From Escherichia coli (GTDB lineage Bacteria; Pseudomonadota; Gammaproteobacteria; Enterobacterales; Enterobacteriaceae), in NCBI RefSeq assembly GCF_002854065.1, contig NZ_CP024147.1: a stretch of DNA of 64,000 nucleotides; one strand, given 5' to 3'. Numbering within the stretch: the first letter of the stretch is position 1; each line of letters begins with the position of its first letter. The notes under the pieces were generated by a model. The model did no database searches, was not told the origin of the DNA, and worked only from the letters and a program-made list of their open reading frames with translations. Of the stretch, positions 8,584-13,831 are shown in pieces. The translations under genes and the position numbers were made by a program.

Positions 8584-8907
8584 TTACTCGGCAGAAGAGG
8601 ATTTGATGTCAGCGAGCTGTTTCTCCAGCCCAGCAATACGCTGTTGTAGTTGCACAACGGAGGAGTCATGGTTTTGCATTCCCCATCCCCGCTCCGGGCG
8701 GTAAAGCGTGGCCCAAATCCACAAAAATGGCCAGATAACATGCAGCGTAAAAAGACTCACCCAACCAGCAACATGAATGGCGTCGGCATGAGGATGATTA
8801 CGTTTTTTAGCAATCAGGTAGGGAATATCATGTAAAATAATAATCCCATAGAATATCACCAGAAATACAAAAATAAGCACTCCCAGTGCAAAATAGTCCA
8901 GGAACAT
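8584..8907 (-). CDS. yiaW: small inner-membrane protein (DUF3302)
   Basis: 107 aa from [17 protein letters not shown]...; 5 bp upstream of yiaV; paralogous to the ORF at 18980-19342. Confidence 0.8.
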
Positions 8908-9338
8908 ATTTCCCTCAGAGAATATAAAAAAGAACAATTAACACATATTATGAAATGCCATGATGCAGTGCAATTTCCTTATTTATATAACGACATATTA
9001 TTTTTTATATACTTTCTGAAGTGTGCTGCGTGGCTTTTCAACAGGTCGAGGTTTATCATATTGAAATAATGGAACTATTGGCCAAATTTATGATTAAAAA
9101 CCGTAAAACATCCACAATGCAGATTAAGCGTATTAAACCTTCAATAATCTACCGTTTATTGCTGATTGTCCTCGGAATACCAATGGTGATTTACGGTCTG
9201 GTTTGCCCGCTCACCATCGAAACGCGAGATTAAACTCCTGGCAAAACACACCCCAGAAACGCACTTTTGTTGGCGTAGTCTGGGTTATTGCACACGTAGG
9301 TTTAAAACGTAAATTGTAACAACGTGCGCTTTGTTTAT

Positions 9339-9420
9339 GCCGGATGCGGCGTGTACGCCTTATCCGGCCTACGGTCAGGTCCCCGTAGGCATGATAAGAC
9401 GCGTAAGCGTCGCATCAGGC
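9339..9420. repeat. REP extragenic palindromes
   Basis: gccggatgcggcgtgtacgccttatccggcctac ... gacgcgtaagcgtcgcatcaggc downstream of aldB. Confidence 0.65.
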
Positions 9421-9451
9421 AATTAATACCCGATGCGACCAGCTTCTTACA

Positions 9452-10990
9452 TCAGAACAGCCCCAACGGTTTATCTGAGTAGCTCACCAGCAGGCACTTG
9501 GTTTGCTGGTAATGCTCCAGCATCATCTTGTGGGTTTCGCGTCCAATGCCTGATTGTTTGTAGCCGCCAAACGCCGCATGTGCCGGGTAAGCGTGATAAC
9601 AGTTGGTCCACACGCGCCCGGCCTGAATGCCGCGCCCCATCTTATAGGCCAGATTACCGTTGCGGCTCCAGACGCCTGCGCCCAGGCCATATTGCGTATC
9701 GTTCGCCAGCTCCAGCGCTTCTTCCATCGTTTTGAAGGTGGTCACCGCCAGCACCGGGCCAAAAATCTCTTCCTGGAACACCCGCATATTGTTCTGACCA
9801 AACAGAATCGTCGGTTCAAGGTAGTAGCCGTCTTTCAGTTCGCCTTCCAGCAGCTTGCGCCGCCCGCCGGTGAGCACGTCTGCGCCCTCTTTTTTACCGA
9901 TATCAATGTAGTTGAGGATGGTTTCCAGTTGCCCGTGAGAAACCTGCGCACCCATTTGCGTCACGCTGTCGAGTGGGTTACCGCTGCGAATGCTTTCGAC
10001 ACGGCGGATGGCGCGTTCCATAAAGCGTTCGTAGATTGACTCCTGCACTAAGGCACGACTCGGACAGGTGCAAACTTCGCCCTGGTTAAAGGCAAACAGT
10101 GCAAAGCCTTCCAGCGCTTTATCGAAAAAGGCATCTTCTTCATCCATCACATCAGCAAAGAAGATATTTGGCGACTTACCGCCCAACTCCAGCGTCACCG
10201 GAATAATGTTTTGCGTTGCGTATTGCATAATTTGTTGGCCCACTTCCGTTGAGCCGGTAAACGCCACTTTGGCGATGCGTTTCGAGGTCGCCAGATATTC
10301 GCCAATTTCCCCACCTGCGCCATTGACCACGTTCACCACGCCCGGCGGCAGTAAATCACCGACAATTTCCATTAGCAGCAGTACAGAAAGCGGGGTAAGA
10401 CGTGCGGGTTTCAGCACCACACAGTTGCCCGCCGCCAGCGCGGGAGCCATTTTCCAGCTCGCCATCAGCAGCGGGAAGTTCCACGGGATAATCTGCCCCA
10501 CCACGCCTAACGGTTCATGGAAATGATAGGCCACGGTTTCGCTATCAACTTCACTGATCCCACCTTCCTGCGCCCGAATACACGAGGCGAAATAGCGGAA
10601 ATGGTCAATCGCCAGCGGTACATCCGCAGCACTGGTTTCGCGAATGGGTTTGCCGTTATCCCAGGTTTCAGCTGTCGCTAACAGCTCGAGGTTTTGTTCC
10701 ATTCGATCGGCAATCTTAAACAGAATCGCCGCGCGATCCTGCACCGAGGTGTGCGCCCATTTATCTTTCACTTTGTGCGCAGCATCCAGCGCCAGATCGA
10801 TGTCTCGTTTGCCCGAAGACGCCACTTCGCACAGCAGCTGCCCGGTCACCGGCGTCAGGTTCTGGTAATACTCACCATCGGCAGGGGCTACCCATTCGCC
10901 GCCAATAAAGTTGTCATAGCGGTTTTTTAACTTGAGGGGGAAACCATACTCGCCGGGCTTAATCTGTGCTGAAGGGGGATTATTGGTCAT
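9452..10990 (-). CDS. aldB: NADP-dependent aldehyde dehydrogenase B
   Basis: Start set at ATG 10990 ([17 protein letters not shown]...), giving 512 aa; aldehyde dehydrogenase motifs (ELGGKSP, VCTCPSR); the track ORF over-extends upstream. Confidence 0.9.
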
Positions 10991-12167: not shown

Positions 12168-12182
12168 GGTAATGACTCCAAC

Positions 12183-12686
12183 TTATTGATAGTGTTTTAT
12201 GTTCAGATAATGCCCGATGACTTTGTCATGCAGCTCCACCGATTTTGAGAACGACAGCGACTTCCGTCCCAGCCGTGCCAGGTGCTGCCTCAGATTCAGG
12301 TTATGCCGCTCAATTCGCTGCGTATATCGCTTGCTGATTACGTGCAGCTTTCCCTTCAGGCGGGATTCATACAGCGGCCAGCCATCCGTCATCCATATCA
12401 CCACGTCAAAGGGTGACAGCAGGCTCATAAGACGCCCCAGCGTCGCCATAGTGCGTTCACCGAATACGTGCGCAACAACCGTCTTCCGGAGACTGTCATA
12501 CGCGTAAAACAGCCAGCGCTGGCGCGATTTAGCCCCGACATAGCCCCACTGTTCGTCCATTTCCGCGCAGACGATGACGTCACTGCCCGGCTGTATGCGC
12601 GAGGTTACCGACTGCGGCCTGAGTTTTTTAAGTGACGTAAAATCGTGTTGAGGCCAACGCCCATAATGCGGGCAGTTGCCCGGCAT
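12183..12686 (-). CDS. insB: IS1 InsB (expressed as InsAB' by -1 frameshift)
   Basis: 167-aa [28 protein letters not shown]..., overlapping insA in the -1 frame. Confidence 0.95.
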
Positions 12687-12880
12687 CCAACGCCATTCAT
12701 GGCCATATCAATGATTTTCTGGTGCGTACCGGGTTGAGAAGCGGTGTAAGTGAACTGCAGTTGCCATGTTTTACGGCAGTGAGAGCAGAGATAGCGCTGA
12801 TGTCCGGCGGTGCTTTTGCCGTTACGCACCACCCCGTCAGTAGCTGAACAGGAGGGACAGCTGATAGAAACAGAAGCCAC
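12605..12880 (-). CDS. insA: IS1 InsA
   Basis: 91 aa, [43 protein letters not shown]... Confidence 0.95.
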
Positions 12881-12963
12881 TGGAGCACCTCAAAAACACC
12901 ATCATACACTAAATCAGTAAGTTGGCAGCATCACCTATTATTGTTTAGCAAAATTAATCTAAT

Positions 12964-13007: not shown

Positions 13008-13035
13008 CATAAGAATTTTGGGTAATGACTCCAAC

Positions 13036-13539
13036 TTATTGATAGTGTTTTATGTTCAGATAATGCCCGATGACTTTGTCATGCAGCTCCACCGATTTTG
13101 AGAACGACAGCGACTTCCGTCCCAGCCGTGCCAGGTGCTGCCTCAGATTCAGGTTATGCCGCTCAATTCGCTGCGTATATCGCTTGCTGATTACGTGCAG
13201 CTTTCCCTTCAGGCGGGATTCATACAGCGGCCAGCCATCCGTCATCCATATCACCACGTCAAAGGGTGACAGCAGGCTCATAAGACGCCCCAGCGTCGCC
13301 ATAGTGCGTTCACCGAATACGTGCGCAACAACCGTCTTCCGGAGCCTGTCATACGCGTAAAACAGCCAGCGCTGGCGCGATTTAGCCCCGACGTATCCCC
13401 ACTGTTCGTCCATTTCCGCGCAGACGATGACGTCACTGCCCGGCTGTATGCGCGAGGTTACCGACTGCGGCCTGAGTTTTTTAAATGGCGGAAAATCGTG
13501 TTGAGGCCAACGCCCATAATGCGGGCGGTTGCCCGGCAT
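13036..13539 (-). CDS. insB: IS1 InsB (variant)
   Basis: 167 aa; [21 protein letters not shown]... vs copy 1 [21 protein letters not shown]...; YDRLRKT vs YDSLRKT. Confidence 0.9.
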
Positions 13540-13733
13540 CCAACGCCATTCATGGCCATATCAATGATTTTCTGGTGCGTACCGGGTTGAGAAGCGGTGT
13601 AAGTGAACTGCAGTTGCCATGTTTTACGGCAGTGAGAGCAGAGATAGCGCTGATGTCCGGCAGTGCTTTTGCCGTTACGCACCACCCCATCAGTAGCTGA
13701 ACAGGAGGGACAGCTGATAGAAACAGAAGCCAC
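13458..13733 (-). CDS. insA: IS1 InsA (variant)
   Basis: 91 aa; differs from copy 1 (…NTIFRHLKN… vs …NTILRHLKN…). Confidence 0.9.
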
Positions 13734-13831
13734 TGGAGCACCTCAAAAACACCATCATACACTAAATCAGTAAGTTGGCAGCATCACCGAATTTTGTATT
13801 AATTTATTTTAAAACTTAATTAATCATTTCC

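Follow-up and report, generated by a model that had tools for sequence, protein, structure and literature searches.

The window analysed here is a 64,000-nucleotide stretch of Escherichia coli DNA in which yiaW (8587–8907, minus strand) and aldB (9452–10990, minus strand) are separated by a spacer of 544 nt. The product of yiaW matches the domain DUF3302, and a second DUF3302 paralogue, ≈70–75% identical to YiaW, occupies another locus in Escherichia and in many other Enterobacteriaceae (L044, L062–L064, L068, and similar loci). An open frame of 70 codons runs through the spacer on the plus strand, from a GTG at 9021 to the TAA at 9233. The in-frame ATG at 9069 that the first-pass annotation had offered as an internal start is present as claimed, and further in-frame ATG codons follow at 9090 and 9117. 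The description of the translation as a hydrophobic stretch with a basic flank is likewise borne out: the best 19-residue Kyte–Doolittle window (LLLIVLGIPMVIYGLVCPL) scores 2.53, with lysine and arginine residues upstream. The DNA upstream of the frame is AT-rich, with 25–30% GC relative to 50% for the whole window, and a Shine–Dalgarno sequence is absent before every candidate start, both as first reported. The features of the spacer are collected in Table 1.

Table 1 Features of the yiaW–aldB spacer, with positions numbered from the first letter of the window
Feature	Position	Strand	Basis and remarks
yiaWV promoter equivalent; in K-12 CAGACA-17-TATAAA	9004–9032	−	PMC3946193; motif placed by reading the alignment
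In-frame extension, 23 codons, with GTG 9021 and ATG 9069	9021–9089	+	Non-synonymous:synonymous counts, broken frames, TAA in L086
Upstream 19-nt motif GGTTTATCATATTGAAATA	9050–9068	+	Nucleotide conservation, Escherichia versus Citrobacter-like L086
Remnant ORF, 47 codons plus stop	9090–9233	+	Ancestral start and ancestral stop kept; alignment, PGAP calls
Transmembrane helix 1, codons 19–39, IIYRLLLIVLGIPMVIYGLVC	9144–9206	+	Only helix retained; hydropathy
Deletion junction TACGGTCTGGTTTGC	9192–9206	+	Hybrid of both 15-nt direct repeats flanking the lost 171 bp
hicB antitoxin 3′ remnant, ≈24 codons, 12-nt internal deletion	9230–9301	−	BLAST
REP-type repeats downstream of aldB	9333–9458		Three sub-threshold Rfam naRNA4 (RF02564) matches, 34–39 bits against a gathering threshold of 59.5

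Whether the frame counts as annotated depends on the genome that is consulted. The first-pass description of it as unannotated is correct for curated MG1655 (NC_000913.3), which has zero genes between yiaW and aldB, but not for many other E. coli genomes, in which PGAP or GenBank records list a "hypothetical protein" here. In K-12-like strains, PGAP calls a 47-aa protein (WP_001066080.1) that starts at the equivalent of window position 9090, and in other E. coli strains a 67-aa hypothetical protein (WP_000885435.1) is called at the same site; strain 100416 and O157:H7 carry the ORF without a PGAP call. The exact 47-aa and 54-aa products of the window are already present in NCBI and UniRef as hypothetical proteins. 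The spacer of the window is 100% identical to that of strain 100416 and 93.9% identical to that of K-12. In strain 100416 (L001, NZ_CM128593.1), PGAP also assigns aldB to the pseudogenes on account of an "internal stop"; in the window, the frame of aldB is open. A literature search for an ORF between yiaW and aldB, for the peptide, and for the WP accessions found no paper that mentions them.

A database search with the 70-aa frame returned matches solely to Escherichia proteins, and we therefore compared the yiaW loci of other species, taken from one genome per species and selected independently of the ORF. The homologous frame is intact in E. whittamii (L008) and in Escherichia sp. E1V33 (L007), where it spans 127 codons, giving 104 aa from a conserved methionine. 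E. coli itself carries the intact 104-aa gene in 28 of 5426 complete genomes, as judged by the presence of a 171-bp segment, and PGAP annotates a 104-aa CDS at the equivalent site in EC42405 (WP_001064341.1) and 2013C-4282 (WP_001064340.1; loci L087 and L088). The form from which this segment is deleted is found in ≈3800 complete E. coli genomes, K-12 included, when at least 80% of the query is required to be covered, and thus makes up ≈99% of the locus-bearing E. coli genomes. Genomes with neither form contain a fragment of the locus or nothing, and about one in five to one in four of the complete E. coli genomes lack the region altogether. When the intact 104-aa protein was searched against truncated loci by tblastn, residues 1–38/39 were matched with 82–97% identity. 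The intact gene is convergent with aldB in L087, L088, L008, L086, and L098, the same arrangement as that of the window ORF; the gene order is yiaT-yiaU-gene-aldB in the Citrobacter-like locus L086 and aminotransferase-gene-aldB-ROK-yiaY in the Franconibacter locus L098. Among the intact Escherichia genes, dN/dS is 0.10–0.17, with ≈8 non-synonymous to 21 synonymous changes (p = 2e-7 relative to neutrality), a pattern that shows purifying selection on the intact 104-aa gene.

Alignment of the common E. coli form with the intact genes shows one gap of 171 columns, equivalent to 57 codons. A repeat search in L008 and L007 located 15-nt direct repeats, identical at 13 of 15 positions, that start exactly 171 nt from each other. 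Codons 39–95 were lost between these repeats (TACgGCCTGGTTyGC) in the ancestor of most E. coli, and perhaps more than once, with replication slippage or short-homology recombination at the direct repeats as the likely mechanism. Since the 171 bp make up whole codons, the deletion joined the start codon and helix 1 in frame to the last nine codons with the stop, and the resulting 47-codon ORF resembles a typical single-pass small membrane protein. Two junction types occur among the truncated alleles, TGC in the window and CGC in K-12, and they fit two crossover points or one point mutation alike. In neighbor-joining trees, which are short and unbootstrapped, intact E. coli alleles nest among truncated ones; this nesting may reflect polymorphism that pre-dates the deletion, more than one deletion, or recombination. 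The opposite polarity, with the 171-bp segment as an insertion, conflicts with the occurrence of full-length homologues in Citrobacter, Franconibacter, and more distant groups. Overall, we put at roughly 97% the probability that the ORF arose from a conserved 104-aa membrane-protein gene by an in-frame deletion mediated by repeats and that its true start is at 9090. The proposal of an independent gene for a small membrane protein gives way to that of a 47-codon derivative of a 104-codon gene, although the hydrophobic stretch on which the proposal was built is a real transmembrane helix, namely helix 1 of a conserved membrane protein.

The ancestral product is a 104-residue inner-membrane protein with two long hydrophobic helices and a short conserved hairpin. 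A profile made from four full-length sequences was searched against 1.84 billion cluster representatives and retrieved 239 proteins at E ≤ 1e-3 and 56 at E ≤ 1e-10, nearly all of them 100–125 aa in length and aligned from ≈9 to 102; the truncated proteins P0001 and P0030 were recovered as well. Family members come from Citrobacter, Franconibacter, Pseudocitrobacter, Klebsiella, and Enterobacter isolates, the orthologues from Citrobacter amalonaticus/farmeri and Franconibacter being 51–58% identical to the intact protein, and distant members occur in Agarivorans and in metagenome-assembled genomes of Deltaproteobacteria and Elusimicrobiota. Members share a basic N-terminal tail followed by helix 1, a WN...HG hairpin, and a long second helix that ends in GLWxYS(K/R)x(R/K)P, and seven alignment columns are invariant or near-invariant (G27, G40, G46, G59, G88, L89, and W90). 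An AlphaFold2 model of the intact protein, built on an 80-sequence alignment, has a mean pLDDT of 80 and places helices at 17–44 and 62–95 and the hairpin at 51–56. Pfam and NCBIfam scans of the 70-aa ORF, of the 127-aa and 104-aa proteins, and of 80 family members gave nothing above noise, and neither a sequence-profile search of the PDB nor a Foldseek search of the PDB with the AlphaFold2 model produced a meaningful match. Some sources label homologues as DUF3566 or DUF4190; the Pfam HMMs of these domains are unmatched in eight family members even at E ≤ 10, and none of 59 family matches has a precomputed Pfam domain. A yiaU-like LysR regulator lies directly upstream on the same strand in L086 (2952–4315) and in L101 (2939–4363), a distant metagenomic relative, and yiaVW intervenes between yiaU and the 104-aa gene in E. 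coli. The arrangement hints at a pairing of the yiaU-like LysR protein and the 104-aa family gene as regulator and target.

Other relics share the spacer with the ORF. By BLAST, positions 9192–9301 of the window align to positions 1666–1787 of L087, in which hicB is annotated at 1704–2114; the hicB remnant also matches annotated HicB genes, and L007 has HicA and HicB Pfam matches. In EC42405, E1V33, and ST648, hicB and hicA are both intact and occupy the interval from the membrane-protein gene to aldB, and in EC42405 hicB overlaps the stop of the 104-aa gene by 4 nt. In the window, hicA and the rest of hicB are gone. The REP-type repeats lie outside the ORF; their repetitive nature shows in a median of three matching places per genome when the whole spacer is the query. 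In the two strains inspected among the E. coli genomes where the query finds neither yiaVW nor ORF sequence beside aldB, S2 (L005) and ST648 (L089), genes for an MFS transporter and a GH127 glycoside hydrolase take the place of yiaVW; ST648 keeps the last 27 nt of the gene beside its intact hicB and has, in addition to hicAB, a gene for a type I restriction endonuclease. The spacer next to aldB is a hotspot of rearrangement. In Escherichia sp. MOD1-EC7003, a different deletion has removed the 5′ half of the gene, and in the Citrobacter freundii group and Pseudocitrobacter yiaW adjoins aldB with the gene absent between them, so the same gene appears to have decayed independently in other lineages. 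On the far side of aldB, yiaY is interrupted by two tandem copies of what we take, from the InsA and InsB frames and the terminal sequence, to be IS1 (≈12168–12935 and ≈13020–13790, with InsA 91-aa and InsB 167-aa ORFs). Agreement of the window with K-12 yiaY begins only near codon 50, the 5′ part being replaced by putative IS1 end sequence.

The starts first proposed for the frame, GTG 9021 and ATG 9069, do not agree with its homologues. In the 104-aa proteins P0048 and P0051, of the Citrobacter amalonaticus/farmeri type, and in the 103-aa Franconibacter protein P0052, translation starts at the methionine equivalent to 9090, which makes ATG 9090 the ancestral start; in L086, a TAA stands directly ahead of the ATG equivalent to 9090. 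Upstream of this position the sequence behaves as non-coding. Pairwise comparisons of the extension among intact alleles give non-synonymous to synonymous ratios of 5:4, 9:2, and 6:2 (≈10 versus 4 changes), and the frame is not continuous in O157:H7, which has a stop in it, or in strain 103, which lacks 1 nt (L090 and L091). ATG 9069, moreover, reads GTG in K-12. Shimada et al. (2014) reported an RpoD holoenzyme and H-NS site in the yiaW–aldB spacer by genomic SELEX (PMC3946193), and the extension overlaps the published yiaWV promoter, the −35 element of which reads CACGCA in the window. A reading in which the 70-aa or 54-aa frame is the true product can point to the frame being open from 9021 in the window, to an ATG at that position in K-12, E. 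whittamii, and E1V33, and to the calls of 54-aa, 67-aa, and 127-aa versions by GenBank submitters and PGAP. The orthologue starts, the excess of non-synonymous changes, the interruptions, and the promoter overlap make it very improbable that either upstream start is used. From its sequence, 9021–9089 is most likely a non-coding leader combined with the divergent promoter region. The conserved 19-nt motif within it may be a candidate promoter, with TATCAT as the −10 element, or an operator for the 104-aa gene; a promoter scan for consensus promoters found none on the plus strand and one site on the minus strand, at 9084–9055.

Even less credible is the reading that regulatory DNA or a non-coding RNA locus contains this frame by chance, without any coding history. 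Frame length gives such a reading some room, in that 32% of the sequences obtained by first-order resampling of the 544-nt spacer hold a complete ORF of 70 codons or more, and length was dropped as coding evidence after this shuffle test. The region is also AT-rich and H-NS-bound (PMC3946193), and a Shine–Dalgarno sequence is missing. The last point is uninformative, however, because the intact orthologues, which are under purifying selection, likewise have none. The coding ancestry of the frame follows from homology, not from ORF length, and an origin by chance is refuted by the evident relationship, at the protein level, with the intact 104-aa genes and the wider family; that the family itself might consist of spurious gene calls is argued against by the purifying selection on it. 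An RNA element was dropped as an explanation because no Rfam match covers the ORF at a permissive threshold, the Rfam matches being confined to sub-threshold ones downstream, and because RNA folding of 9060–9240 is no better than that of shuffled sequence (z = +0.58).

The 47-aa product keeps residues 1–38, comprising the tail and helix 1, and the last nine residues; residues 39–95 are gone. Helix 2 and the conserved WN, HG, and GLWxYS motifs were lost with the deleted segment, from which we infer that the original function was lost too. Six of the seven near-invariant family positions fall in that segment, and the seventh carries the substitution G27V in the window. The ORF is most probably a tolerated relic without function, which would be decaying slowly, tolerated rather than selected. 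The earlier remark that the frame may well be non-coding comes near this verdict on its present-day function, although the reason differs and the frame was coding in origin. Because the upstream region is unchanged in the truncated alleles, the 47-aa peptide may still be transcribed and translated.

The alternative that weighs most against a functionless relic is translation of the 47-aa ORF into a single-pass inner-membrane peptide with a kept or gained function, in which case the deletion allele would be advantageous; the peptide would, for example, act as a modulator of the ancestral protein's partner or as a regulatory micro-protein. We regard this as unlikely, although not negligibly so, and the evidence divides as follows. 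The deletion preserves the reading frame exactly and leaves the start codon, the upstream region, and the stop in place. In 11 truncated alleles drawn from the complete-genome collection, the 47-codon frame is open without exception, and gene callers predict the ORF in most E. coli genomes; on the opposite side, databases contain a few variants of the truncated ORF with a frameshift, a lost stop, or a replaced N terminus, a sign that it is dispensable. A core comprising residues 11–26 (QIKRIKPSIIYRLLLI) has zero amino-acid changes among the 11 alleles, with a nucleotide diversity of 0.016. In K-12, helix 1 lies above the hydropathy threshold, at 1.71 for the best 19-residue Kyte–Doolittle window, and the window protein is more hydrophobic still (2.53) through G27V and T30I. 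Selection for the deletion could, in addition, explain why the deletion allele is carried by nearly all locus-bearing genomes. Against a functional peptide, the part of the protein that is conserved in the family is the part that was lost, G27 is itself mutated in the window, and the nucleotide diversity of the ORF in the 11 alleles (0.047) equals that of non-coding flanks (0.057 in the upstream spacer, as compared with 0.031 in the yiaW and aldB coding sequence). The window lineage differs from the intact allele by 9.5 non-synonymous and 2.5 synonymous changes. The many E. coli genomes from which the region is missing, the absence of the ORF from the curated MG1655 gene set, and the silence of the literature search count on the same side.

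The substitution counts in the truncated alleles can be read for or against such a peptide. Counted by parsimony at all sites, there are 12 non-synonymous to 8 synonymous changes, a ratio compatible with neutrality (p = 0.12) and marginally different from that of the intact genes (Fisher p = 0.04–0.06). Six of the 12 non-synonymous changes, however, lie in codons 2–5 (9093–9104), where five of eight adjacent bases differ between the type shared by the window and strain 103 (AAAAACCG) and the K-12 type (AACTCCAG), a cluster that looks like one complex event. Without codons 2–5 the count is 6:8, which is below the neutral expectation (p = 0.01) and similar to the intact genes (p = 0.44), with the qualification that some of this polymorphism may pre-date the deletion. 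Because intact alleles nest inside truncated ones in the neighbor-joining trees, the 6:8 signal could be inherited from intact ancestors or, just as well, result from constraint on a peptide that is still functional. The argument that relaxed selection proves a pseudogene was dropped, since the outcome hinges on whether codons 2–5 are counted. More doubtful than a functional peptide in general is a further version that would have the truncation create an expressed neo-peptide from helix 1, brought near fixation by a possibly recurrent deletion, with G27V, T30I, R39C, and the rewritten N-terminal tail as adaptive changes in the O157/O145-like lineage to which the window belongs. If true, it would document the birth of a small protein through truncation.

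Viewed against known systems, the relic most resembles its own parent. With the WP_001064341.1-type protein, the window ORF shares residues 1–38 and the last nine, the start, the stop, the position, and the orientation, and it is 82–97% identical to the intact E. coli allele over residues 1–39; what it lacks is residues 39–95, that is, the hairpin, helix 2, and the WN, HG, and GLWxYS motifs. The 104-aa family itself is without known function, Pfam or NCBIfam model, or solved structure. Like validated small inner-membrane proteins of E. coli such as MgrB and YohP, the 47-aa product has a positive N-terminal tail and one predicted helix and is encoded in an intergenic region. Members of that class (≤50 aa), which were found by tagging and ribosome profiling, owe their status to experimental detection and, as a rule, to the short ORF itself being conserved. 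Unlike them, the short form in the window is a recent deletion product and a predicted peptide. In common with pseudogenes formed by deletion between direct repeats, it has an intact homologue in relatives and in a minority of its own species, end-points in 15-nt direct repeats, a loss of conserved residues, and independent losses elsewhere. It differs from them in that the deletion is in frame, without a frameshift or premature stop, so that a product could be made, and for this reason PGAP calls the ORF a normal CDS rather than a pseudogene. In contrast to a hicAB type II toxin–antitoxin module, the window has only a 3′ stump of hicB and no toxin–antitoxin capacity.

The 47-aa or 67-aa "hypothetical protein" found in thousands of RefSeq E. 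coli genomes is, in these terms, the internally deleted allele of a 104-aa gene, and screens for small ORFs that rank candidates by hydrophobicity will keep rediscovering this remnant. The truncated gene, the hicB stump, and the REP elements together make the yiaW–aldB spacer a small graveyard. The intact gene represents an uncharacterised membrane-protein family, with linkage to aldB and in some cases also to a LysR regulator resembling yiaU, and because intact, truncated, and absent states segregate within E. coli, natural isogenic comparisons are possible.
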